NCBI GenBank assembly: GCA_013288905.1
Contig: JABDAW010000003.1
Location: forward strand, 1 to 52,679
Reading direction: 5' to 3'
Length of the DNA stretch: 52,679 bases
Source of the DNA: Bacteroidota bacterium
GTDB lineage: Bacteria > Bacteroidota > Bacteroidia > AKYH767-A > JABDAW01
Below, one piece after another: positions 2,880 through 52,679 of this stretch (its first letter is position 1; each line of letters starts with the position of its first letter). The translations under genes and the position numbers were made by a program. The notes beneath the pieces are model-generated. The model did no database searches and was not told the origin of the DNA. It saw only the letters and a list, made by a program, of their open reading frames with translations.

Positions 2880-3127
2880 CCAATTATGCAAGGGGGAATA
2901 CAAATTATGCAAGGTCGGAAGACAATTATGCAAGGTCGGAAGCAAATTATGCAAGGTCGGAAGGAAAATATGCAAGGTGGGATGGAAAATATGCAAGCGC
3001 GGAAGACAATTATGCAAGGTCGGAAGGACAATATGCAAGGTCGGAAGGACAATATGCAAGGTCGGAAGCAAATTATGCAAGGTCGGAAGGACAATATGCA
3101 AGGTCAGAAGGACAATATGCATCGCCA
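2880..3127. repeat. tandem array A: 12 copies of a 21-bp unit (wATGCAAGGTCGGAAG + 4-5 variable nt)
   Basis: TATGCAAGG recurs at 2885, 2906, 2927, 2948, 2969, 2990, 3011, 3032, 3053, 3074, 3095 and 3116 with no indels. Confidence 0.95.
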
Positions 3128-9097: not shown

Positions 9098-9655
9098 ATG
9101 AGGCGAACAAATCTATACATCATCGGGCTGTTGGTTGTTATCAGCAGTTGTACTTCTGTGAGGTATGATACCGAAAGATACATCAAAAATAATATCGAAA
9201 TTCATAAGACTGGTGAATATAGCAGCATCAAAATTATCTCTCTGTATAATCAAACTTCCATGAAGGACGGGTCGCGGCTGGAGATGACCGGATATAAATA
9301 TAATAACCAAAAAGGTTTGGTGGTTTCTGCATATCAATATTATAAGGACAGGAAGAAATTCAAAGATGATAACACCGTGCTTTCTAATACTGCATTTATT
9401 CTTTTGGATACGGTGCAATGTCGCACGATACTTACTAATTACAATCAATTGGAAGCAAAATTAAAGACCGAAACTCCCGGCAGTGAAGAAGAGATATTCA
9501 TGGATTTTACTGTATCTGAAGATTTATTCTTCAGTATGCAAAAAGCCAAGGGTGGTGGGGTTTCTAATGATGTTTATTTATGGATTAAAGGAGAAAAATA
9601 TACCATTGCTTCGGATGCTTTGTTGAATAATATGGAGGATTTTTTGAAGTGGTAA
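9098..9655 (+). CDS. hypothetical lipoprotein
   Basis: Signal peptide with lipobox VISSC. 185 aa. Confidence 0.6.
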   Translation: MRRTNLYIIGLLVVISSCTSVRYDTERYIKNNIEIHKTGEYSSIKIISLYNQTSMKDGSRLEMTGYKYNNQKGLVVSAYQYYKDRKKFKDDNTVLSNTAFILLDTVQCRTILTNYNQLEAKLKTETPGSEEEIFMDFTVSEDLFFSMQKAKGGGVSNDVYLWIKGEKYTIASDALLNNMEDFLKW

Positions 9656-9664
9656 AGTGGTGTA

Positions 9665-9722
9665 AAGGTATAGGGTATAAGGGTATAAGGGTATAAGGGT
9701 ATAAGGGTATAAAGGGTATAAA
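9665..9722. repeat. octamer tandem repeat (GGGTATAA)x6-7
   Basis: GGGTATAA at 9673, 9681, 9689, 9697, 9705 and 9714. Fills the 69-bp gap up to the gldA ATG. Confidence 0.9.
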
Positions 9723-9724
9723 TT

Positions 9725-10639
9725 ATGTCAGTAAAAGTTGTTGAGATTTCTAAGGTTTATGGGAAGCAGAATGCTTTGGATGGTGTTTCGTTTGAGGTAA
9801 ATGCTGGTGAAGTTCTTGGGTTTCTTGGTCCTAATGGTGCGGGCAAATCTACCATGATGAAGATACTGACTTGCTTTATTCCACAGACTTCCGGGACTGC
9901 TTTTGTTTGTGGACATGATGTGAATGAAGAGCCGCTTGAGGTGAAGAAATGCGTGGGATATTTGCCGGAGAATAATCCTTTATATCATGATATGTATGTC
10001 AAGGAATATCTTGAATTCATTGCTGGCATACAAGGATTGAAAGGGAGTAAAACCGCAAGGGTTAAAGAGATGATTGGTATGACCGGGCTTGAGGTGGAGC
10101 AACATAAAAAGATAGGTGCGCTTTCTAAAGGGTATCGGCAACGAGTCGGACTGGCACAGGCTCTGATTCATGATCCTAAGGTGTTGATTCTTGATGAACC
10201 TACTTCAGGATTAGACCCTAATCAACTTACTGAAATAAGAAGTTTGATTAAGAATATCGGCAAGGAAAAGACGGTGATATTTTCTACTCACATTATGCAG
10301 GAAGTTACTGCTATATGCAGCAGAGTGGTGATTATTAATAAAGGAAAAATTGTTGCTGATGATCCTATAGAAGTTCTTAAACAACATGCCGTGAGTAAGG
10401 CTGTCATATCTGTAGAATTTGATGCTCCGACATCAAAGACTGCCTTGAAAAAGATTGCCGGTGTTAGCGAAGTAGAACTGATTAAAGACAATCAATGGCA
10501 ATTATATTCCGATGCTGAAACTGATATTCGCAAAGAGCTTTTCAACTTTGCCATTGAGAATAAATTAGCCATTATTACTATCAAAAAAGAGGAGCAGAAT
10601 TTGGAGGAAATCTTTCATGAATTGACGAAGAATAGTTGA
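9725..10639 (+). CDS. gldA: gliding motility-associated ABC transporter ATP-binding subunit GldA
   Basis: Walker A GPNGAGKST, ABC signature and Walker B. GldA-like length and sequence. Confidence 0.8.
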   Translation: MSVKVVEISKVYGKQNALDGVSFEVNAGEVLGFLGPNGAGKSTMMKILTCFIPQTSGTAFVCGHDVNEEPLEVKKCVGYLPENNPLYHDMYVKEYLEFIAGIQGLKGSKTARVKEMIGMTGLEVEQHKKIGALSKGYRQRVGLAQALIHDPKVLILDEPTSGLDPNQLTEIRSLIKNIGKEKTVIFSTHIMQEVTAICSRVVIINKGKIVADDPIEVLKQHAVSKAVISVEFDAPTSKTALKKIAGVSEVELIKDNQWQLYSDAETDIRKELFNFAIENKLAIITIKKEEQNLEEIFHELTKNS

Positions 10640-11439: not shown

Positions 11440-11650
11440 CTTCATGGTGAAAGCAAGTAGCCCTTCTCCTAAAAAATACTTTTCTTTGCAAGCAAAATAA
11501 AGGATGGGATAAGGTCTTTCCTTAACTTTTTGTACTTTTGCACAAATCAAACAATTAAATACAATGGCAAAACCAATTAAAGAAACCCCAGTATTGATGG
11601 GAGAAGATGCAAAGAGATTCTTGAAACAGAAAGAAGAAAACAAGGGCAAA
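11440..11650 (+). repeat. dispersed repeat copy 1 (promoter plus 5' part of small ORF)
   Basis: Bases 11440-11622 differ from 12291-12473 at 4 positions, with no indels (constant offset 851). Confidence 0.9.
11533..11540 (+). promoter_or_regulatory. -7 promoter box TACTTTTG
   Basis: TAnnTTTG match 24 bp upstream of the ATG at 11564. Confidence 0.5.
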
Positions 11651-11716
11651 AAACTTCCTCCTGAAGAAGTAGAAAGAATAATGAAAAATTACAAAAAGTT
11701 TAGGGTCATTGATTAA
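11564..11716 (+). CDS. 50-aa putative antitoxin (not in ORF track, under 60 aa)
   Basis: Encodes MAKPIKETPVLMGEDAKRFLKQKEENKGKKLPPEEVERIMKNYKKFRVID. Stops 15 bp before the GNAT gene. A paralog precedes the PIN gene. Confidence 0.55.
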   Translation: MAKPIKETPVLMGEDAKRFLKQKEENKGKKLPPEEVERIMKNYKKFRVID

Positions 11717-11731
11717 TTTTATTTTATCTTA

Positions 11732-12271
11732 ATGATTTTAGACGATCTTAAAAGGTTATCTCAAGATCATGCTATTCTCCCTTTTAAATGTGGAGATACT
11801 GATCTTGAAAACTTTCTTAACGATGATGCAAAAGCTCATGGTGAAGCCCTTTTATCTGTAACTTATTTAATGGAAAAAGACAATTTAACAATTGCTTTTT
11901 TCAGTCTTTTTAATGACAAGATTGGCTATAATGAAATAAACAGTCATCGAAAATTTGAGAAGATATTTAAAGCCAAGCTACCAAAAAGCAAATGGTTTAA
12001 AAGCTATCCTTCCGTTAAGATTGGAAGGTTTGGAGTTCATCAAAATTATCAAAACGAGGGAGTGGGAGGTAAAATTTTGGATTTTATTAAAGGCTGGTTT
12101 ATTGATAATAATAAAACGGGGTGTATGTATATTACGGTTGATGCTTATAAAAGATCATTGCCTTTTTATTCAAAGAATGGTTTCCTGTTTTTGACGGATG
12201 ATGATGTAGATTCTGATACTCGCTTGATGTATTTTGATTTGACATTATTAAAAAATAGTTTAATAAATTAA
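11732..12271 (+). CDS. GNAT family N-acetyltransferase, TacT/KacT-like toxin candidate
   Basis: FKCGDTDLENFL N-terminal motif and acetyl-CoA site (GVHQNYQNEGVGGKIL), typical of toxin-type GNATs. Preceded by a small ORF. Confidence 0.75.
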   Translation: MILDDLKRLSQDHAILPFKCGDTDLENFLNDDAKAHGEALLSVTYLMEKDNLTIAFFSLFNDKIGYNEINSHRKFEKIFKAKLPKSKWFKSYPSVKIGRFGVHQNYQNEGVGGKILDFIKGWFIDNNKTGCMYITVDAYKRSLPFYSKNGFLFLTDDDVDSDTRLMYFDLTLLKNSLIN

Positions 12272-12290: not shown

Positions 12291-12501
12291 CTTCATGGTG
12301 AAAGCAAGTAGCCCTTCTCCTAAAAAATCCTTTTCTTTGCAAGCAAAATAAAGGATGAGATAAGGTCTTTCCTTGACTTTTTGTACTTTTGCACAAATCA
12401 AACAATTAAATACAATGGCAAAACCAATTAAAGAAACCCCTGTATTGATGGGAGAAGATGCAAAGAGATTCTTAAAGCATAAGAAAGAAAGCAAGGGTAA
12501 G
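12291..12501 (+). repeat. dispersed repeat copy 2
   Basis: See copy 1. Confidence 0.9.
12384..12391 (+). promoter_or_regulatory. -7 promoter box TACTTTTG
   Basis: Same box and same 24-bp spacing to the ATG at 12415 as in copy 1. Confidence 0.5.
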
Positions 12502-12567
12502 AAAATTGACCCGGAAAAACTTAAAAAGATGAGGGAGAGTTATCTTAAATTCAGCCCTAAAAGTTAG
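12415..12567 (+). CDS. 50-aa putative antitoxin, paralog of 11564..11716
   Basis: The first 21 residues are identical to the paralog. Internal ATG of ORF 12373..12567. Stops 9 bp before the PIN gene. Confidence 0.55.
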   Translation: MAKPIKETPVLMGEDAKRFLKHKKESKGKKIDPEKLKKMRESYLKFSPKS

Positions 12568-12576
12568 GTTTGAAAG

Positions 12577-13065
12577 ATGAAAAAACTAAAAATTTATTTA
12601 GATACTTCAATAATTAATTTCTTATTTGCAGATGATACTCCCGACTTCAAAAGAAACACAGAAGACTTCTTTGATAATTATTTAAAGAAAGGAATTTACG
12701 ATTGTCTTGTTTCTGATGTAGTGTTTGATGAGATAAATAGAACGGAGGAGGATGAAAAACGATTGAAACTTTTACAGGTTATAAAAGATTATAATATTCC
12801 TTATGATTCTTTCAATAAGGAGGCAGAACGACTGGCTCACATTTATATCAAAGATGGAGTTATTCCAGTTAAGAAATTTGATGATGCCAGGCATATAGGG
12901 TTGGCAACTACTAACAGTTTTGATATTCTACTATCCTGGAACTTTAAGCATTTGGCAAACGTAAACAAAAGAATAAAAATTAAAATTATTAATGAACGCG
13001 AAGGATATTTCTATCCTCTTGATTTGGTAACACCTATACAACTAATATATGATGAAAACGATTAA
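12577..13065 (+). CDS. PIN-domain protein (VapC-like toxin candidate)
   Basis: IYLDTSI acidic N-terminal motif, DARHIGLAT, SWNFKH. 162 aa. Confidence 0.7.
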   Translation: MKKLKIYLDTSIINFLFADDTPDFKRNTEDFFDNYLKKGIYDCLVSDVVFDEINRTEEDEKRLKLLQVIKDYNIPYDSFNKEAERLAHIYIKDGVIPVKKFDDARHIGLATTNSFDILLSWNFKHLANVNKRIKIKIINEREGYFYPLDLVTPIQLIYDEND

Positions 13066-13249: not shown

Positions 13250-13318
13250 TCCATCCCTCCTTTCCTTCACAAACCTCCCCAAAGACCTGCCTCCTCCTTC
13301 CTCCTCCTCTTCCCGTCG

Positions 13319-13377
13319 TGGTGAAAGCAAGTAGCCCTTCTCCTAAAAAATACTTTTCTTTGCAACAAAAATAAAGG
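13319..13377 (+). repeat. dispersed repeat copy 3 (first ~60 bp only)
   Basis: TGGTGAAAGCAAGTAGCCCTTCTCCTAAAAAATACTTTTCTTTGCAA is shared with copies 1 and 2. Confidence 0.85.
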
Positions 13378-13409: not shown

Positions 13410-14024
13410 ATGATGAAAATTCTTAAATATTTTTCTCTATTATTAATTGTTATTGGATTTATTGGTCTCTTGGGTTGTGGATTAATATTTACTACTATAC
13501 TTGATTACAAATATGAATTACCAATTGCATGGAATGCTCAAACAACAATGAGTAGTGAGAACAAGTTTTATGTTGGATTGCCTGATTATGGAAAGATTCA
13601 AGTGTATGATATTAATGGGAAGTTTCTATTCAACTTTAAAGTTTATGGTTGGGGTGGAGAATTTACATTTAAAATAATAGGTGATACTATTCAAGTAAAA
13701 ACTGTACATAAGGATTTATTAAGTTTTTATGATTTAAAGGGAAGAGCTATTAGCAGTAAACATATTTACTTTAGTCATGATGACTATAGAGATTCACCTT
13801 CAACATCTGATCCATCACATACTATAATTAATGGATATTATATAAGAACTGAAACTGTTATCATTCCAAAAATCATAATTGAAAAAGATGGTAAGACAAC
13901 TATCATTAAATCCCCTTTATACCTGAATTTATTAAAGGCTCCTTTTCTTTCAGGTCCTTTATTTTTCTTTGGAATAATTATCTTTTTTTCAATAAGAAAT
14001 AAAATGAAGAATCAAGTTAAATAA
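13410..14024 (+). CDS. hypothetical membrane protein
   Basis: N- and C-terminal hydrophobic helices. 204 aa. Confidence 0.5.
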   Translation: MMKILKYFSLLLIVIGFIGLLGCGLIFTTILDYKYELPIAWNAQTTMSSENKFYVGLPDYGKIQVYDINGKFLFNFKVYGWGGEFTFKIIGDTIQVKTVHKDLLSFYDLKGRAISSKHIYFSHDDYRDSPSTSDPSHTIINGYYIRTETVIIPKIIIEKDGKTTIIKSPLYLNLLKAPFLSGPLFFFGIIIFFSIRNKMKNQVK

Positions 14025-14073: not shown

Positions 14074-14101
14074 CCTAATTCCTAATTTTTAATTCCTAAT
14101 T
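14074..14101. repeat. AT-rich dispersed element CCTAATTCCTAATTTTTAATTCCTAATT
   Basis: 28-nt sequence identical to 23569-23596. Related copies at 23236-23270, 23363-23390, 25060-25087 and 42735-42762. Confidence 0.9.
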
Positions 14102-14510: not shown

Positions 14511-14772
14511 AAAAGACGAAAGTGCAGCCGTATGGTTAGAAACGGCTGCCCTTTCTTTAGAAACGGCTGCACTATCCTTATATATGGCGGAACAATGCAT
14601 GGAAACGGCGGAAGTATCCTTACATTGTTCCGCCGTTTCTTTACAAACGGCGGAACTATCCTTACAAACGGCAGAACAATGCATGGAAACGGCGGAAGTA
14701 TCCATACATAGTTCCGCCGTTTGTAAAGAAACGGCGGAAGAATGCTTGTATCCTTCCGCACTTTCGTCTTTT
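14511..14772. repeat. tandem array B: 11 x 21-bp units (AAACGGCGGAA core, some inverted), bounded by a 15-bp inverted repeat
   Basis: AACGGC at 14541, 14562, 14604, 14646, 14667, 14688 and 14730. Inverted cores at 14627 and 14711. AAAAGACGAAAGTGC at 14511-14525 pairs with GCACTTTCGTCTTTT at 14758-14772. Confidence 0.9.
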
Positions 14773-14792
14773 AGAGACATGAAATGTGGTTT

Positions 14793-23141: not shown

Positions 23142-23264
23142 AGTTTTTCTTTCACCGCCGCCAAATCGGGTAATTTTTGCACTGTTCACTATTCACTGTC
23201 TGTGTTTGTCCTAACCTGAAATAAATTTGCCAAACGTAATTCCTGATTTGTAATTTTTAATTCC

Positions 23265-23272
23265 TAATTTCG
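23265..23272 (+). promoter_or_regulatory. -7-like box TAATTTCG
   Basis: One-mismatch variant of TAnnTTTG, 11 nt upstream of tRNA-Arg. Confidence 0.35.
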
Positions 23273-23282
23273 CCCCCGCATT

Positions 23283-23356
23283 GGACCCGTAGTTCAACTG
23301 GATAGAATGACAGATTTCGGCTCTGTTGGTTGGGGGTTCGAATCCCTCCGGGTTCA
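23283..23356 (+). tRNA. tRNA-Arg (anticodon TCG)
   Basis: 74-nt cloverleaf. Acceptor GGACCCG/CGGGTTC, anticodon stem ACAGA/TCTGT with loop TTTCGGC, T-loop TTCGAAT. Confidence 0.85.
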
Positions 23357-23395
23357 CAAATCAATTAGGAATTAGGAATTAAAAATTAGGGCTTA

Positions 23396-23533
23396 AGTAA
23401 GTTTTTAATGGAAAAGAAGAATGATAAATTCAACACAGAGAAACAGAGATACACAGAGTTTCACAGAGAAAAATAAGACTCTGTGTATCTCTGTTTCTCT
23501 GTGTTGAAAAAAAGCTTCCATTAAAAACTTACT
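23396..23533. repeat. 138-nt compound hairpin (18-bp outer stem plus perfect 28-bp inner stem)
   Basis: AGTAAGTTTTTAATGGAA at 23396-23413 pairs with 23516-23533. CAACACAGAGAAACAGAGATACACAGAG at 23431-23458 pairs with 23479-23506. Confidence 0.9.
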
Positions 23534-23599
23534 ATAGCCAAAATTAGGAATTAAGTTGTTATATTATTCCTAATTCCTAATTTTTAATTCCTAATTGAC

Positions 23600-24764: not shown

Positions 24765-24850
24765 TAAAACAGCGAGGCTTTGATTGCAGAATATCCTTGG
24801 CATAATGATTTCATCGAAGGATTTGGGCGAATGATAAATTGCATAAAATC

Positions 24851-24994
24851 CCAAATTCATTGCCGTTGGCTTCAGCCAACGGATAATTGATAAACACTCA
24901 ATTGGCTTTAGCCAAAAATAAATATTCTTTTGGCTAAAGCCAATTCCCTCATCCAACTTAATCCGTTGGCTGAAGCCAACGGCAATGAATTTGG
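24851..24994. repeat. nested cruciform palindrome (33-bp outer arms, 17-bp inner arms)
   Basis: 24851-24883 is the exact reverse complement of 24962-24994. 24901-24917 is the exact reverse complement of 24928-24944. Confidence 0.95.
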
Positions 24995-25144
24995 AATTTT
25001 GTACAATTTGTCATACATACATTCTGAATGATTTCCTACTTTCGCCCCATGCTATATTCAATTAAGAATTAGGAATTATGAATTACGATGCTTGGGGTAT
25101 TGATTAATAAAAGGAGATGGGGGTATTTTGAAAAATAGTAAACT

Positions 25145-28819: not shown

Positions 28820-28848
28820 TGAATTTCATTAAAAGGTGTATCTTTTGC

Positions 28849-29085
28849 TCCGAAAACTGTTTCTATCGTTCCGAAAGCTGTTTCTATTGTTCCGAAAGCT
28901 GTTTCTATCGTTCCGAAAGCTGTTTCTATCGTTCCAATAGCTGTTTCTATTACTCCGAAAGATGTTTCTTCTGCTCCAAAAGATGTTTCTTCTGCTCCAA
29001 AAGATGCATCTTTTACTCCAAAAGATGCATCTTTTACTCCAATAGAAGCATCTTTTGGAACGATAGAAGCATCTTTTGCTCTTGA
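28849..29085. repeat. tandem array C: about 11 x 21-bp units drifting from TCCGAAAGCTGTTTCTATCGT to TCCAAAAGATGCATCTTTTAC
   Basis: TCCGAAA/TCCAAAA recurs at 28849, 28870, 28891, 28912, 28933, 28954, 28975, 28996, 29017 and 29038, with a degenerate unit at 29059. Confidence 0.9.
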
Positions 29086-42731: not shown

Positions 42732-42827
42732 GTCAATTAGGAATTACGAATTAGGAATTAGGATGTGGGCATGACTCATAATTTATAATTCCTTTCAGCG
42801 TTGAATCCTCCATAAATAATTAATTCT

Positions 42828-44516
42828 ATGAATAATATGAAAAGTCTCTTTATTATAGCCATTATGACTGCTTTTGCGGTTACATCATTTGGGGCTAATG
42901 ACAATAAAATTACTCCCTCTGAAATTAAATCGGTGAAGATATATACCAAAGGAGCGGTCGTTACCAGGAAGGCTACCATCACTGCTGATGCGGGGGCTTC
43001 TACTATTGAATTCGACAACCTTTCTTCCAGCATTGACAAGCAGAGCGTTACTGTTACCGGCACCGGTGATGTTACGATATTGAGCGTTCAATATAATTTG
43101 AATTATCTGAATGAGGAACAGAAACCGAGGGAGGTAATTGTGCTGGAGGATTCTGTAAAATTCATCAATCATGAATTAGATAAATTAAACAATCTTGATT
43201 CGGTTTATGTTGAAGAGAAGAGCATGATTCTTTCCAATAAATCAATTCGTGATGAGCGGGAAGGTGTTACTGCTGATAAATTGACCGATGTTGCAAATTT
43301 CTATCGAAGCAGATTATCTGATATTAGTGCGAAACTCCTTGATATTCGCTATGAGCAAGAGCGGTTGAGGAAGGATAAGAGCAGAATAAATGCTCAATTA
43401 AAAACCATTAAAACCAACCGCGATAAACCTACCGGAACCATCAATGTCAGCCTGTCTGCGAATACAAGAACTCAAGTTACATTAGAGATTAGTTATCTTG
43501 TTCTTGATGCCGGATGGAGCCCTCTTTATGACATTCGGGCGAAGGATATCAGCAGCCCCATTCAATTAAATTACAAAGCAAATGTATTCCAAAATAGCGG
43601 CGAAGATTGGAAGAATATTCACATTACATTAAGCACCGGAAATCCAACATTGAGCGGGGAAATGCCTCAATTATATCCCTGGCATTTGAATTTTTATGTG
43701 CCAACATATCAACCAAAATATAAGAATCGTGCTTATCATGAGGATGTTAAAACCTTAGCAGGTAAGGAAGAAGCTGATAGCGCTGCTTTAGTTATTAGAG
43801 GCGCAAGAAGTGAATCCACAAAATATGTTGTTGATGGAATTGCTGTTACTGGGTATAATAAGGATGAAGCCAAATTACAAGCGATAGAAGTAAATACCAA
43901 TAACAACCAACTTTCCGTAGATTTCGACATCGCCATTCCCTATTCCGTGCCATCGGATAACAAGGTCTATCTGGTGGATGTGCAGCATTATGAAATGAAG
44001 GCGGATTACAGCTACCACGCCATTCCAAAATTAGATAAAGATGCCTTCCTGATTGCACGTGTGACGGGCTGGGAGGCGATGAATCTGCTATCCGGCAATG
44101 CCAATATTTTCTTCGAGAATGCCTTCATCGGAGCCTCTTATTTGCAATTAAATAATGCATCCGATACCCTCGACATTTCATTGGGAAGGGACAAGAAAAT
44201 TTCCATTAACAGAGAGAAGCAAAAAGATTTCACCAAGAGCCAGACCGTGGGCAGCAATATCGTCAAGACGATTGCTTATGAAATCTCGGTAAGGAATAGC
44301 AAAGCCGAGGCGATAAATATTACGCTCGACGACCAACTTCCGATCTCTGACAACAAAGATATTTCGGTCAAGATGCTGGAGAATTCCAATGCCGAATTCA
44401 ACGATAAAACCGGAACGATGACCTGGAAAATGAATGTCGCGCCCTCTGCCACCGAGAAAAGGAAGCTGTCATTCAGCGTGAAATACCCCAAAGATCAGAA
44501 CGTTCCGAATCTTTAA
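42828..44516 (+). CDS. DUF4140/DUF4139 (MuiA-like, TIGR02231-type) secreted protein
   Basis: Signal peptide, central coiled coil, family-typical N- and C-terminal regions. Confidence 0.7.
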   Translation: MNNMKSLFIIAIMTAFAVTSFGANDNKITPSEIKSVKIYTKGAVVTRKATITADAGASTIEFDNLSSSIDKQSVTVTGTGDVTILSVQYNLNYLNEEQKPREVIVLEDSVKFINHELDKLNNLDSVYVEEKSMILSNKSIRDEREGVTADKLTDVANFYRSRLSDISAKLLDIRYEQERLRKDKSRINAQLKTIKTNRDKPTGTINVSLSANTRTQVTLEISYLVLDAGWSPLYDIRAKDISSPIQLNYKANVFQNSGEDWKNIHITLSTGNPTLSGEMPQLYPWHLNFYVPTYQPKYKNRAYHEDVKTLAGKEEADSAALVIRGARSESTKYVVDGIAVTGYNKDEAKLQAIEVNTNNNQLSVDFDIAIPYSVPSDNKVYLVDVQHYEMKADYSYHAIPKLDKDAFLIARVTGWEAMNLLSGNANIFFENAFIGASYLQLNNASDTLDISLGRDKKISINREKQKDFTKSQTVGSNIVKTIAYEISVRNSKAEAINITLDDQLPISDNKDISVKMLENSNAEFNDKTGTMTWKMNVAPSATEKRKLSFSVKYPKDQNVPNL

Positions 44517-44578
44517 AAGGCTATTTTGAATCAAATTAAAACGGTGAAAGTTAATATCGTAAGCAAGATTTACTTTAT

Positions 44579-44790
44579 AAATACCTCCGCTGATGCCGTA
44601 ATTACCTCCGCAAATTCTGTCAATACCTCCGCTGATGGCAAAAATACCTCCGCAATTCCCGTCAATACCTCCGCTGATGCCAAGAATACCTCCGCAATTC
44701 CCGTCAATACCTCCGCTGATGCCAAAAATACCTCCGCAATTCCCGTCAATACCCTCCGTTGATGCCGAAAATACCTCCGCTAATTCAATC
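44579..44790. repeat. tandem array D: 10 x 21-bp units (AATACCTCCGC core) in a 42-bp alternating pattern
   Basis: ACCTCC at 44583, 44604, 44625, 44646, 44667, 44688, 44709, 44730, 44751 and 44773. A 1-nt insertion sits in the ninth unit. Confidence 0.9.
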
Positions 44791-44842
44791 CAAATAGCAT
44801 CACATTATTTAAATTCCCTCAATTCCCTTCCCCTTAAAATTC

Positions 44843-44850
44843 TAAATTTG
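44843..44850 (+). promoter_or_regulatory. -7 promoter box TAAATTTG
   Basis: 26 bp upstream of the ATG at 44876, between array D and the gene. Confidence 0.5.
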
Positions 44851-44875
44851 CCCCTCACAAAATAATAATTATATA

Positions 44876-46255
44876 ATGAAAATATCCAATATCCTTTGTA
44901 CCCTTGCCGCCATTTTTATCTTGAATAGTTCGAATGCGCAGACTTTTTCTCCGGTCGCGAATGGCACGAATAGCGACATTTATGCCTTAGCGGTTTATAA
45001 TAGCCAACTATGGATCGGCGGAGAATTCACGGAGTGTTATAGCAGCGACACTATTATCAGCCCGATGCTCACTATTTTTGATGGCAGCAATTTCAACCTT
45101 CCCACCGACTCCGGCTGGTCTGGCGGAGGGATTACAAATTTTTTGGTGAACACTACGAATCTGTTTATAGGAGGATATTTTTCGCTTCCTTTTGATTCGA
45201 TTACCGACATCAACAACCTCGTCAAATATAATGGTACCTGGGGAGACACCGCCTATAGTCTCAACAATACCGTGGATGCGATGATTTATTATAACGGGAA
45301 TTTGTACGCCGGCGGGGCATTTAATTCTACGGATTCCGGTGCTGTGAATTACATCGCAAAATGGGACTCGGTGAACCATGTTTGGGCGAATGTGACGACA
45401 GGCGTGACCAATGGCGAGGTCAGGGCTTTGGAAGTCTTCAATGGCTATCTTTATGCTGCCGGAAACTTCACGCTCATTGACGGTGTTCCCACAAATTATA
45501 TTGCGAAATGGAATGACACGCTCTGGCAGCCAATCGGGCTGGGGCTGATAGGAAATGTCAATGCCCTGAAAGTCTTTGACACCCTGCTCTATGCCGGAGG
45601 AAACTTTATCCTTGCCGGGGCTGATACTTTTAATCATATTGCGGCTATTGATGCCAATAATAATTATTTTAAAGTCGGCTACGGGCATTCCGTAAACGGG
45701 CTTGATTCCACTGGAATAGGAAGTGATACACTTGCCGATGTCAGATGTTTTGAAGTCCTGAATGGCAGCTTATACATTGGCGGATATTTTTCTGAAGCCA
45801 ATGGTGCACCAGGCAATTCGATCATAAATTGGAATGGATCAAATTATATAAGCATGGGTAATGGAATAACTTCGTTTGGCGGCGTCGTATATGCCCTGAA
45901 AGGCTGGAATGGAAGCCTGTATATTGGTGGTTCGTTTGACCAAGCCGACAGTATTGCCGCTAATAATATTTGCAAATATGATGCACCGGCAGGAATTAAA
46001 AACGTCAGGAATAATATTGCTGTGAGCACCTTTCCAAACCCTGCCAATACGGTTATTAATTTTAATATCATCAATGAGAATAACATATCCGGCATCATTA
46101 AATTACTTGATATCAGCGGCAGAGAGATGATACAAGAATCTTTTCATGTTGGTCTGAACAGCCTTGATATCAGCAATTTGGATAATGGAATGTATCTCTA
46201 TGAAATCATTGGAAATTCTTCCATTTTTCAAGGGAAGATTATTGTTGAGAAATAA
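44876..46255 (+). CDS. secreted beta-propeller-like repeat protein with T9SS C-terminal sorting domain
   Basis: Signal peptide. Repeats of the ...LYAGGNF...NYIAKW(D/N) type. C-terminal FPNPANTVINF...GMYLYEI...GKIIVEK. Confidence 0.7.
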   Translation: MKISNILCTLAAIFILNSSNAQTFSPVANGTNSDIYALAVYNSQLWIGGEFTECYSSDTIISPMLTIFDGSNFNLPTDSGWSGGGITNFLVNTTNLFIGGYFSLPFDSITDINNLVKYNGTWGDTAYSLNNTVDAMIYYNGNLYAGGAFNSTDSGAVNYIAKWDSVNHVWANVTTGVTNGEVRALEVFNGYLYAAGNFTLIDGVPTNYIAKWNDTLWQPIGLGLIGNVNALKVFDTLLYAGGNFILAGADTFNHIAAIDANNNYFKVGYGHSVNGLDSTGIGSDTLADVRCFEVLNGSLYIGGYFSEANGAPGNSIINWNGSNYISMGNGITSFGGVVYALKGWNGSLYIGGSFDQADSIAANNICKYDAPAGIKNVRNNIAVSTFPNPANTVINFNIINENNISGIIKLLDISGREMIQESFHVGLNSLDISNLDNGMYLYEIIGNSSIFQGKIIVEK

Positions 46256-50000: not shown

Positions 50001-50068
50001 TATTCCTTACATAAGGACTTATCAATCCCTATCAGCAAGAAAAATAATAGTATGATGTACGATTTCAT
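47027..50068 (-). CDS. M1-family zinc metallopeptidase with large C-terminal extension
   Basis: HEVGHNWFYG...E gluzincin motif. First ATG (MKSYIILLFF signal peptide) inside ORF 47027..50086. Confidence 0.8.
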   Translation of the reverse strand: MKSYIILLFFLLIGIDKSLCKEYFQQEVRFTISVTLDDVKNELNGTESFDYINNSPDALSFIYIHLWANGYKDHSTALCKQMVENGNTSLYFAKDEDKGFIDQLDFKVNGESVHLEYDSMNIDIAKIILNKPLKHGETITISTPFHVKIPLGKFSRMGHLGQSYQISQWYPKPAVYDRNGWNQIPYLDQGEFYSEFGTFDVNITLPKNYVVGATGDLVNGEQEEKWMTDIADKTKTIEYYSDDSSFPESDKETKTLHYHQEKVHDFAWFADKRYHVLKGEITLPHSNNKVTTWVLFTNYNSKYWRKAIPYIDSAIYYYSLWNGDYPYHQCTAVDGALSAGGGMEYPNVTVIGSVSSDLELEDVIVHEVGHNWFYGMLGSNERRHAWMDEGINSFYEFRYLDTVHPLKTKDEIEKASSWLSNFLGLSSLDSRSLAYISYLIMARKNLTQPIDLPADEYTVYNYDAIVYMKTAMIFKYLMAYLGEETFDKCMKAYFETWKYKHPMPEDIKQVVEKTSGKNLDWFFNDLLETDKKIDYKICKEKADKSNNNFLITIKNNGDVICPFSISGMKKDSIIKTQWYEGFAGTQTINFPFGDYDKIKIDADEIIPEINRRNNTIRTHGLLKKVEPLQLKFLGGIENPDRTQLYWTPVVGFNKYNGLMPGLALYNTFLPEKNLEYIFVPMYSTAMKSLAGTGNVTYAWHPDKSIFQNIKLGVAAKSYAYMNDLVVNENNQTLHDFKYIKIQPELTFDFKKDNARSPVDRTLSIREINIIKDIPAFDYSDTSLVKGTFSYHIFQTTYSMNNHQTFDPYSYKINVEGGAGYSKVSGEFNYSISYNKKGTSADIRFFAGKFVHYNPPPLLNPSFSLSGIQGYQDYLFDNTYLGRSEYNGILSDQIYMRDGDFKVGSFAGQTNNWLATMNTDIPLFGAVSFIHFFFDAGTYRYSNAAFNPTGLSYDGGFSLCLVKKVFVIYFPLFYSNDIETALVANGKDDFKDNIRFVLNIDLINPLNAIKNLSF

Positions 50069-50076
50069 ATCAAATA

Positions 50077-50137
50077 AAGAAGCCACGAATGTTACGAATT
50101 CTTCTAATTAATTCGTGCCATTCGTGGCTTCTTTTTT
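50077..50137. terminator. long hairpin terminator downstream of the TlpA-like gene
   Basis: GAAGCCACGAATG/CATTCGTGGCTTC 13-bp stem with T-runs on both strands. Confidence 0.65.
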
Positions 50138-50143
50138 TAATAA

Positions 50144-51362: not shown

Positions 51363-52070
51363 TTAGAATTGCACCAAAGTGCCAACTGCCTCGCCTTCGA
51401 CAATTCTCAACAAATTTCCTTTCTGATTCATGTCAAACACTATAATCGGAAGCTTATTTTCATTGCATAGAGTGAAGGCGGTAAGGTCCATAATATTTAA
51501 TCCCTGTTTATAAACTTCATCGAAAGAGATTGTTTGATACTTCGTCGCTGTCTTGTCCTTTTCAGGGTCGGCAGAATAGATTCCATCCACACGAGTTCCC
51601 TTCAATACCACATCAGCTTCAATTTCTATGGCACGCAGGCAAGCTGCCGTATCAGTCGTAAAATAAGGATTTCCAGTGCCTGCACCGAAGATGACCACGC
51701 GACCTTTTTCGAGATGACGGATTGCTCGACGCTTGATATAAGGCTCACAAATCTGTTCCATTTTAATGGCAGATTGCAGGCGAGTACTCACATCTATCCG
51801 TTCCAAAGCGGACTGCAATGCCATGCTGTTGATCACCGTAGCGAGCATACCCATATAATCTCCTTGCACCCTGTCTATACCCCCTTCTTCTGCCTGAATC
51901 CCTCGAAAAATATTCCCGCCACCTATCACGATAGCCACCTGAATACCTTGGTCAACTGCATTCTTGATTTCATTGGAATATTGATTAAGCATATCATGAT
52001 CAATGCCAAATTGTTTAGACCCCATCAGCGATTCGCCGCTCAATTTCAGTAAGATTCTTTTGTATTTCAT
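51363..52070 (-). CDS. pyrH: UMP kinase
   Basis: [18 protein letters not shown] and amino-acid-kinase fold motifs. Confidence 0.95.
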
Positions 52071-52098
52071 CAGGTGGCTTTAGTAATTGTCAAGAGGG

Positions 52099-52106
52099 CA
52101 AAAGTA
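52099..52106 (-). promoter_or_regulatory. -7 promoter box TACTTTTG
   Basis: Minus-strand match 29 bp upstream of the pyrH ATG. Confidence 0.5.
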
Positions 52107-52201
52107 CAAAATAAACAGTAAGACACGAATGCCATTTTCTGCTTTGCAATGAAATGCCTATTATTAGATACTAAAAAAGTCGCAGGAGACATTAAACCCC
52201 T

Positions 52202-52437
52202 ACCAGTTTGAACTGCAAAGAGTTTAGTTTGAACTGTGCGGGGACCAGTTTGAGCTGGTAGGTATTTAGTTTGAACTGGTGAGGGACCAATTTGAACTGG
52301 GACGGATATATTTTGAACTGGGACGGGTATTATTTGAACTGGAGGTGTACCAGTTTGAACTGGGAGGTGTACCAGTTTGAACTGGGACGGATATTGTTTG
52401 AACTGCTGACAAAATTGTTTTAACTGGAAGGTGGATG
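52202..52437. repeat. tandem array E: 11 x 21-bp units with core (CCAG)TTTGAACTGG
   Basis: TTTGAACT recurs at 52207, 52228, 52249, 52270, 52291, 52312, 52333, 52354, 52376, 52397 and 52418. One 1-nt insertion. Confidence 0.9.
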
Positions 52438-52460
52438 ACTTCATTCTAACGTCAGGCAAT

Positions 52461-52500
52461 AAAAAAACCACGAATCCTATATACGCAGGATTCGTGGTTT
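52461..52500 (-). terminator. rho-independent terminator of the partial upstream gene
   Basis: AAACCACGAATCC/GGATTCGTGGTTT 13-bp stem. T-run on the minus strand. Confidence 0.7.
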
Positions 52501-52523
52501 ACATTTACCTGGAATTCCAGTTT

Positions 52524-52679
52524 CTATTTTGCCCTTACTGCAATAATCTGACTTTCTCTAACCAGCACACCATGACAGATTTCAGCAACAGAAATATTTT
52601 GCATAGAGCCTGAAACAAAATTGCCAATGGTAACATGAGTAAGGTCTGTCGGTTGTGCCCGCACGAAAGCCGTCCTGTC
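52524..52679 (-). CDS. 3' end of an unidentified gene (51 codons plus stop), truncated by window edge
   Basis: Minus-strand frame is open from the window edge (...VRAQPTDLTHVTIGNFVSGSMQNISVAEICHGVLVRESQIIAVRAK*), followed by a terminator hairpin. Confidence 0.45.
   Translation of the reverse strand, partial: DRTAFVRAQPTDLTHVTIGNFVSGSMQNISVAEICHGVLVRESQIIAVRAK

Follow-up and report, generated by a model that had tools for sequence, protein, structure and literature searches.

We analysed a 52,679-nucleotide stretch of contig JABDAW010000003.1 (hereafter the window) from an uncultured soil Bacteroidota, in which a tandem array of 21-bp repeats, termed array E, lies between the end of a gene that we call gene X and the start of pyrH. 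Comparison of loci indicates that array E is the 3' part of a conserved, duplicated module comprising gene X, its terminator, 10-11 repeat units and a boundary box, and that pyrH came to adjoin this module by rearrangement, array E not being an element of pyrH. The array also appears to be non-coding and kept by selection. We tentatively read it as a phased multi-site docking array for a sequence-specific binder.

Anatomy of array E and of the gene X module

The features at and around array E are the following (positions in the window).

52524-52679, minus strand: 3' end of gene X (last 51 codons and stop); the full 231-aa gene is at L001:3594-4289
52465-52500, minus strand: T1, the 15-pair hairpin of gene X's intrinsic terminator; its T run is at 52464-52458
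52438-52464, minus strand: spacer from T1 to the first unit, homologous in the paralogous copy
52202-52437, no strand: array E, eleven 21-bp units, one being 22 bp long
Array E unit: 10-nt core, TTTGAACTGG on the plus strand and CCAGTTCAAA on the gene X strand, plus a variable 11-nt spacer
52350-52385, no strand: pair of units with perfect CCAGTTTGAACTGG, the single 22-bp step falling between them
52186-52195, minus strand: 3' boundary box TAATGTCTCC, one period past the last unit of array E and kept after all 5 gene X arrays
52155-52185, minus strand: T run (52179-52174) and last ~20 nt of the module; homology to the paralogue ends near 52155
52099-52106, minus strand: -7 box of the pyrH promoter, TACTTTTG, outside the conserved module
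51363-52070, minus strand: pyrH (UMP kinase; Pfam AA_kinase, homologues named UMP kinase), the module's neighbour in this genome only

Read along the minus strand, the end of gene X (52524) is followed by a hairpin and T run (52500-52458), array E, a weak hairpin and T run (52203-52174), TACTTTTG and the pyrH ATG (52070). The original prediction, which had described an eleven-unit 21-bp array framed by the terminator of the upstream gene on one side and by a promoter box and pyrH on the other, was borne out in this arrangement, with 11 boxes counted and the terminator hairpin placed at 52465-52500 instead of starting at 52461. The TACTTTTG box (52106-52099) fits TAnnTTTG, which we take to be the -7 promoter box of Bacteroidota, and stands 29 nt before the pyrH ATG; it is 96 bp away from the end of array E, with the T run and the boundary box in between.

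The 11 boxes of the TTTGAACTGG type span 52207-52427 (6 exact and 5 with one mismatch), and a twelfth match with one mismatch lies in the window outside array E; 100 shuffles of the 52.7-kb window yielded a mean of 5.2 matches, with none of the 100 reaching 12. Box starts are 21 bp apart everywhere but at one 22-bp step (52354 to 52376), and Tandem Repeats Finder (TRF) assigned a period of 21 with a higher order of 42 bp. A sub-period sought at lags of 7, 14, 10 and 11 (10.5 bp) gave no signal in array E. Each unit is made of a conserved box of 9-10 bp and a spacer of 11-12 bp, with the variation sitting in one contiguous block of the unit. The array is identical base for base in 4 independently assembled metagenome contigs spanning it, so that it is neither an assembly artefact nor a hypervariable variable-number tandem repeat (VNTR); it is likewise free of indels or joints in the contigs of runs X1-X4, although contigs can hide rare variants. 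As a repeat feature, array E is real and the observation is confirmed.

Several units had been described as a palindrome, giving the shape of a dimeric regulator site repeated on one helical face. The 14-bp inverted repeat CCAGTTTGAACTGG is perfect solely at 52350-52363 and 52372-52385 and carries one mismatch at 52203, 52245 and 52287, the remaining 6 units being without the left arm; a scan of the window for isolated copies returned none outside array E. The palindrome is therefore present in 5 of the 11 units only (2 perfect, 3 near-perfect), and since its arm is not kept in orthologous arrays either, a dimeric palindromic operator is not a conserved feature. The part of the description that stands is the anatomy of box and spacer and the two-turn geometry.

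T1 is a strong terminator, and its CCACGAATCC stem also closes gene X in L213. Related terminator hairpins on the stem CCACGAAT...ATTCGTGG occur at 50068-50142, 52465-52500 and 52118-52135 as well as at L213:6790-6835; their presence after different genes and in different species suggests a family of related terminators or of hairpins similar to repetitive extragenic palindromic (REP) units. Two array half-sites (CTGG/CCAG) form a perfect palindrome of 12 bp, CTGGAATTCCAG, directly past the gene X stop codon (52509-52520). At the other end of the array, the hairpin that precedes the T run (52203-52182) is weak and, because of its G-U pairs, pairs on the minus strand only; as a hairpin, it is not kept in other species.

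Gene X is a clade-restricted accessory gene, with only 18 homologues among 5.8 billion proteins and no match to Pfam, PHROGs or PDB sequences. Its AlphaFold 2 (AF2) model (pLDDT 69) has a helical bundle followed by an Ig/Fn3-like sandwich. As a candidate binder of the array the protein was rejected, given that Pfam, PHROGs, PDB and Foldseek (PDB, BFVD) returned generic Fn3/Ig matches only and no DNA-binding match.

The module was recognized by reading five gene X loci as DNA, namely the window and loci L209, L211, L212 and L213, where the gene X protein is 77%, 50%, 57% and 59% identical, respectively, to that of the window. All five share the order of gene X, terminator, 10-11 units of 21 bp and boundary box (copy numbers 11, 10, 10-11, 10-11 and 11), each array having its own occasional 22-nt unit; at the four loci other than the window, a spacer of 25-45 nt separates terminator and array. 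The boundary box, one period past the array, reads TAATGTCTCC, TAATCTCTCC, ATATGTCTCC or AATATGTCTG and is mostly followed by a T run, found on the gene X strand in the window, L209, L212 and L213; beside other, non-gene X arrays, the frequency of the box was not above chance. The surroundings of the module differ at each locus, both upstream of gene X (cdsA, DEAD helicase, Wzz, SprA, histidine kinase) and downstream of the array (pyrH, a Kelch protein of the type IX secretion system (T9SS), unrelated unknowns). In an in-register alignment of the window, L209 and L211 units, C1 A2 G3, A9 C10 T11, G13 and C21 are invariant; the window unit shares 13 of its 21 positions with that of L211, even though the two gene X proteins are just 50% identical. 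The units of L212 (AAAGATAGATATGAACACCGA) and L213 (AATTAGATTCAATCTAACTCG) are joined to that of L211 through AGAT(T)AGAT only, so the unit sequence turns over while the architecture stays.

A second, paralogous copy was found in run X3, a small sorted-cell-type data set dominated by the source organism, where the end of a 5384-nt contig aligns to 52189-52405 as an ~88% identical copy of array E. The two copies differ by 19 substitutions and by 6 single-base indels that sum to zero; the ten 10-nt cores account for 46% of the aligned positions yet took only 2 of the 19 substitutions, the other 17 being in spacers (binomial estimate, P about 7e-4), showing that cores are constrained and spacers are not. 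Homology runs on into the T1-side spacer and stops sharply on the pyrH side near 52155, thus leaving the pyrH promoter region outside the duplicated unit. There are at least two gene X-module arrays per sample, since a single sample gave both L211 and L212, and the copy in the window is accompanied by its paralogue. From these alignments, boxes constrained more than spacers look like the pattern of recognition sites. Copies of the core are also found beyond the array: in 56.8 kb, AAACTGG/CCAGTTT occurs 6 times outside array E, and 3 of these 6 lie within 100 nt of gene X ends, two of them inverted, with AAACTGG at -80 and ACCAGTTT at -38 from the start of gene X (L001). Copies of an array's own core near neighbouring promoters were found for array E in this genome and for no other array.

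The original prediction had tied the array to pyrH and had named, beforehand, comparison of the region upstream of pyrH in relatives as the test that could refute this link. The closest pyrH among 185,579 species representatives is 81% identical. A pyrH relative at 90% identity lies 39 bp behind an M1 peptidase gene, and those at 87% and 86% lie 74-78 bp behind tsf (in the row rplM-rpsI-rpsB-tsf-pyrH), all without an array upstream; 80 more distant pyrH loci also had none. With no conservation of the array in front of pyrH the link to this gene fails, and the further claim that arrays of this kind extend beyond accessory genes is undermined, as array E belongs to the clade-restricted gene X and merely abuts pyrH.

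Period-21 arrays of the lineage, known systems and neighbouring repeats

Array E is one of five period-21 arrays that TRF detected in the window, all intergenic and with differing units, which we name A to E in order of position.

2881-3121: array A
14536-14747: array B
28831-29081: array C
44578-44786: array D
52202-52437: array E

The window itself is ordinary chromosome, harboring mreC, PBP2, rodA, aroK, trpS, asnS, purQ, ruvC, yebC, pyrH and several T9SS-secreted proteins, with no Rep, transposase, LytTR or cas genes among its genes. Arrays with 4 or more copies and a period of 10 or more were counted in nine non-redundant loci of the lineage (161 kb) and in 80 other Bacteroidota (1377 kb), the array lengths visible being possibly capped by short-read assembly. 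The lineage yielded 22 arrays: 18 of period 21 (6.6-12 copies), 3 of period 41/42 and 1 of another period; having 5-6 copies, the period-41/42 arrays attain the same total length as those of period 21. The other Bacteroidota yielded 7 arrays, only 2 of which have period 21 (4-5 copies). The density of period-21 arrays is thus ~77-fold greater in the lineage, at about one per 9 kb, and arrays of the class are about 150-250 bp long. Higher-order structure of 42/63/84 bp is present, and the units of the 5 window arrays and of 13 arrays in relatives are mutually unrelated. No motif is common to all arrays, TTTG/CAAA occurring in 12 of 13 and CGGAA in 5 of 13 with no fixed position or strand. At array R2, L205 (6860-6940) has 2.4 copies vs. 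7 in L206 (3100-3275), and these two contigs, from a pair of sister samples, agree at 100% on the right side of the array and are unrelated on its left, which reflects either a rearrangement or insertion or else an assembly chimera.

Individual arrays have features of their own. Array B is flanked by a perfect 15-bp inverted repeat (AAAAGACGAAAGTGC / GCACTTTCGTCTTTT, 14514-14528 and 14759-14773) and has units in both orientations, and a single long hairpin could be formed by all of its 230 bp (z of the RNA fold, about -9 to -12). In array D, alternate units (44646, 44730) contain a perfect TAnnTTTG-type box, TATTTTTG, on the minus strand, while minus-strand boxes of this type point into arrays A (3163) and C (29188); a 102-aa minus-strand open reading frame (ORF) in array C begins 57 nt past such a box. 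Some arrays may, judging from these signals, be transcribed or even translated.

A metagenome-wide scan with TTTGAACTG-N12-TTTGAACTG, a pattern that itself selects period 21, gave among the matches listed mostly unrelated low-G+C 21-bp satellites, with the window's own organism not among them. In the full-text literature we found no description of period-21 arrays in Bacteroidota, the nearest being BrickBuilt and heptamer repeats, and the arrays are a class not matched to any described system.

With respect to known systems, the geometry of array E is closest to three kinds of site. Half-sites of AraC and plasmid iterons have a spacing similar to that of array E. Iterons are repeats of ~17-22 bp in helical phase, present 4-9 times, and the rep promoter contains a partial inverted copy; like them, array E is built of many direct repeats in tandem, whose core is conserved and whose remainder varies, spans two helical turns per unit and lies beside one particular gene. 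Gene X of this genome has inverted partial core copies in its promoter, reminiscent of iterons combined with an operator, but the other four gene X loci are without them. Array E departs from iterons in that gene X is without a Rep or winged-helix signature, the setting is chromosomal and housekeeping, and five arrays with differing units occur within 52 kb. The third kind is represented by LytTR sites, which consist of 9-bp direct repeats separated by 12 (11-13) bp, e.g., ACCAGTTAT-12-ACCGACTAT (PMC6193735). Sites of the AgrA, HdrR/BrsR and VirR type share with array E a direct-repeat box and variable spacer in a 21-bp register, and LytTR boxes of the ACCAGTT type resemble ACCAGTTCA of the window and CCAGTTAAG of L211; with regard to the ACC[AG][CG]TTA[TCG]-like consensus, ACCAGTTCA matches ACCAGTTAT at 7 of 9 positions and ACCAGTTAA of L211 at 8 of 9, while the boxes of L209, L212 and L213 do not fit. 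However, LytTR sites comprise two repeats ~10 bp upstream of the -35 element, whereas array E comprises 11 repeats that stand behind a terminator, with 96 bp to the promoter that follows; neither the window nor the gene X loci showed a LytTR gene. A stand-alone 151-aa LytTR-domain protein is encoded at L214:6749-7204, in the MAG GCA_037134775.1 of the array-bearing lineage, directly past a type I restriction-modification (R-M) operon (hsdM-hsdS-hsdR) and not beside an array. Array E is thus LytTR- or iteron-like in geometry, but without a promoter-proximal pair, Rep gene or replicon.

Among repeat elements, BrickBuilt of Porphyromonas gingivalis is a 23-nt minisatellite inside a MITE (miniature inverted-repeat transposable element), forming one sequence family with 19 members per genome (PMC4596501). 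The likeness to array E lies in the Bacteroidota host, the strictly intergenic position, the gapless tandem repeats of ~21-23 nt and the distinct flanking leader and tail pieces; array E, too, is followed by a conserved tail box and has a second copy within its sample. BrickBuilt differs by its terminal inverted repeats and period of 23, while in the present lineage nearly every array has a unit of its own; no inverted repeat flanks array E, the 15-bp pair of array B being the only one, and a single paralogous copy of array E was detected, unlike the many copies per genome of a MITE. REP units are palindromic with one consensus genome-wide, and VNTRs vary in copy number between strains. REP elements and their bacterial interspersed mosaic elements (BIME), along with VNTR minisatellites, resemble the arrays described here as short extragenic repeat clusters that stand after genes in their hundreds, with higher-order structure from unequal exchange; they differ from array E, which is identical in 4 contigs and keeps 10-11 units in five species. 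A VNTR or contingency locus was rejected on the identity of array E in the 4 independent contigs and the contigs of X1-X4, and a CRISPR array, in which repeats of 23-47 bp alternate with unique spacers of like length, on a core of 10 bp, spacers that are 11 bp long and mutually related, and no cas genes found in the window.

Other repeats populate the window and its relatives. Runs of the heptamer AATTAGG/CCTAATT (3-5 copies) stand just past gene ends at 14074-14101, 23237-23271, 23363-23390, 23566-23596, 25060-25085 and 42735-42763, also symmetrically on both sides of the tRNA at 23283-23356, and the same heptamer is seen at L214:7361-7390; relatives have GAGTTAT x11.6 and AAATTAT x9. These runs resemble the intergenic heptamer repeats of Beggiatoaceae, cyanobacteria and some Bacteroidetes (PMC4679880). 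Derivation of array E from such local heptamers was rejected for want of a 7-, 14- or 10-11-bp sub-period. An intergenic element of ~250 nt, 89-93% identical between copies (11440-11691, 12291-12542, 13308-13377), precedes three consecutive small genes (11732-12271, GNAT; 12577-13065; 13410-14024) and looks like a duplicated promoter/leader region or a small gene-cassette series. A REP-like hairpin, CATCCTGACAGG...CCTGTA(A/T)GGTTG, is intergenic in relatives (L205:6944 and 15613; L207:12538 and, on the minus strand, 5080), several times close to arrays, and absent from the window. An 8-bp tandem repeat, GGTATAAG x 7.9 (9659-9721), fills the 70-bp gap from the ORF at 9098-9655 to the ABC transporter gene at 9725. 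Two further intergenic inverted repeats were noted, one with 54-nt arms of 93% complementarity 76 nt apart (24831-24884 / 24961-25014) and one, downstream of the tRNA, with 31-nt perfect arms 18 nt apart (23429-23459 / 23478-23508).

Candidate functions of array E

Our tentative preference, to which we accord less than an even chance, is that array E serves as a phased multi-site docking array for a sequence-specific binder. Each unit would offer one recognition box of 9-10 bp, and the 21-bp period, equal to two helical turns, would place all boxes on one face of the DNA, where some ten copies of the binder could assemble next to one another in a cooperative manner. The resulting nucleoprotein block would separate gene X's end from the promoter that follows. 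In the long run, box and reader would drift together, with period, copy number and boundary box remaining fixed. We surmise that the boxes are recognition sites because position, period, copy number and boundary box are kept and because the cores are constrained. The strict 21- or 22-bp spacing, the likeness of the boxes to LytTR repeats, the core copies near gene X ends and the enrichment of period-21 arrays in the lineage likewise favour this reading. A number of observations weigh against a docking array: 1) neither the window nor gene X has a recognisable DNA-binding domain for such a binder; 2) 10-11 sites far exceed known LytTR or AraC operators; 3) the box is not kept in L209, L212 and L213, so that the reader would have to co-evolve with the array, and core copies in the gene X promoter are confined to this genome, being found at none of L209, L211, L212 and L213; 4) the ~18 arrays with unrelated units would call for a multitude of readers or else for one that is indifferent to sequence; 5) one array (L205:10882-11072) lies between convergent genes; 6) array D, which in the window lies in the spacer between the DUF4139 and T9SS beta-propeller genes (44516-44876), is absent from the orthologous spacer of L214 (10402-10544, 68% protein identity), which is 141 bp long and array-free, with the promoter CTTAAAATTCTAAATTTGC conserved and no recognisable single-copy progenitor of the array D unit; 7) reading of the boxes in RNA instead of DNA should leave the same pattern of constraint.

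It is possible, although we hold it doubtful, that the lineage has hundreds of length-controlled arrays (~10 x 21 or 5 x 42 bp), free in sequence and kept in period, length and position, which constitute an undescribed class of element, with a machinery peculiar to the lineage that measures off two helical turns and reads or writes the arrays. Such machinery could be a nuclease or integrase of a ruler type, producing the arrays, or else a chromatin-like periodic binder that makes use of them, with the gene X module as the best-conserved example.

We consider it unlikely that array E is a functionless by-product, i.e., the old survivor of a lineage process that duplicates exactly 21 bp (through staggered nicks two turns apart or a slippage ruler), with unequal exchange expanding and homogenising the result. 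Such a process would fit the same period whatever the sequence, the equal total length of the period-41/42 arrays, the 42/63/84-bp structure typical of unequal exchange and the locus-wise gain and loss exemplified by array D in L214 and by R2 at its synteny break. It would also fit the lack of any motif, curvature or fold common to all arrays: under the Bolshoy wedge model with phased A-tracts, the ratio of end-to-end distance to contour was 0.37-0.98, like that of random 21-mers repeated in tandem, with values of 0.78, 0.95 and 0.64 for the three E-type arrays tested. However, free drift should have spread the copy number and lost arrays, while five gene X loci keep 10-11 units and a boundary box despite turnover of the unit; cores are significantly more conserved than spacers between paralogues; window and L211 units still agree although, at this distance, neutral intergenic DNA ought to have become random; and array E is identical in 4 independent metagenome contigs.

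A rather improbable alternative is that the array is transcribed in the direction of gene X, either through T1 or from a start located past T1 and ahead of the repeats, into a repeat RNA whose ~11 boxes bind a protein or RNA as sponge or scaffold, the boundary box and T run marking the 3' end of the RNA. The T run past the array on the gene X strand in four loci, and past arrays A, B and C as well, speaks for this proposal, as does the 52203-52182 hairpin that pairs on the minus strand only, and constrained cores with free spacers fit recognition in RNA equally. On the other hand, there is no TAnnTTTG promoter box between T1 and array E, and T1 is strong; neither the hairpin ahead of the T run nor any fold is conserved, the sense strands of five orthologous arrays having z-scores of -6.4 to -0.4 with no common structure. 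No Rfam family was found either, since Rfam 15 over the window gave a tRNA as sole gathering-level match and, at E <= 1 over 52000-52679, nothing but a chance miRNA match on the terminator. The stretch was in none of the RNA sequencing runs covered.

We find it quite improbable that array and boundary box form the end and recombination site of a mobile or duplicative gene X cassette, with arrays marking cassette borders and rearrangement hot spots. It would explain why gene X and its array have a different neighbourhood on both sides in every genome, why at least two copies occur per sample, why homology to the paralogue stops sharply near 52155 and why L205 and L206 diverge exactly at an array. 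Yet the gene tables of the loci list no recombinase or transposase gene near any copy, a search upstream of gene X gave no matching repeat for the left end, and other arrays flank unrelated, ordinary genes; moreover, poor synteny is common in Bacteroidota at such divergence and needs no special mechanism.

That array E is an operator array for a dimeric regulator controlling pyrH, as originally proposed, now seems very improbable: its position 96 bp upstream of the -7 box in helical phase and its 2 perfect and 3 near-perfect 14-bp palindromes are outweighed by relatives at 86-90% identity that have another upstream gene and no array, by 0 of 80 more distant loci with one, by an array that stays with gene X when the downstream gene changes, and by paralogue homology that ends before the pyrH promoter, together with a palindrome that is not conserved.

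Hardly credible, finally, is a protein with 7-residue repeats encoded by the array (21 bp being 7 codons), in spite of an open frame in all 14 arrays tested (41 open frames vs. ~26 expected by column permutation), PVQTGxx repeats in the minus-strand ORF at 52471-52070 and ATG-starting ORFs of 102-105 aa in arrays A and C. For array E a coding heptad repeat was rejected as no frame is conserved: the window array is open in a single minus-strand frame, and only because the frames on either side of the 22-nt unit are both open by chance, the L209 array on the opposite strand only, and the L211 array in another frame, with TGA/TAG stops in the frame of the window. In addition, the 52471-52070 ORF begins inside the terminator and crosses the pyrH promoter, species-specific 22-nt units shift the frame, and variation sits in one block with no bias to third codon positions.

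If this comparative picture holds, the essential pyrH would not be under an exotic operator array and would merely adjoin the module of an accessory gene. A bacterial tandem array would then behave like a functional satellite, with period, copy number, position and boundary box kept down to 50% identity of the neighbouring protein. The unit would drift in the long term with its core constrained in the short term, resembling centromeric or iteron repeats that co-evolve with their binders, but on a chromosome and beside a gene without a DNA-binding signature. At the level of the lineage, dense arrays with a single sharp 21-bp period regardless of sequence would point to a molecular ruler.

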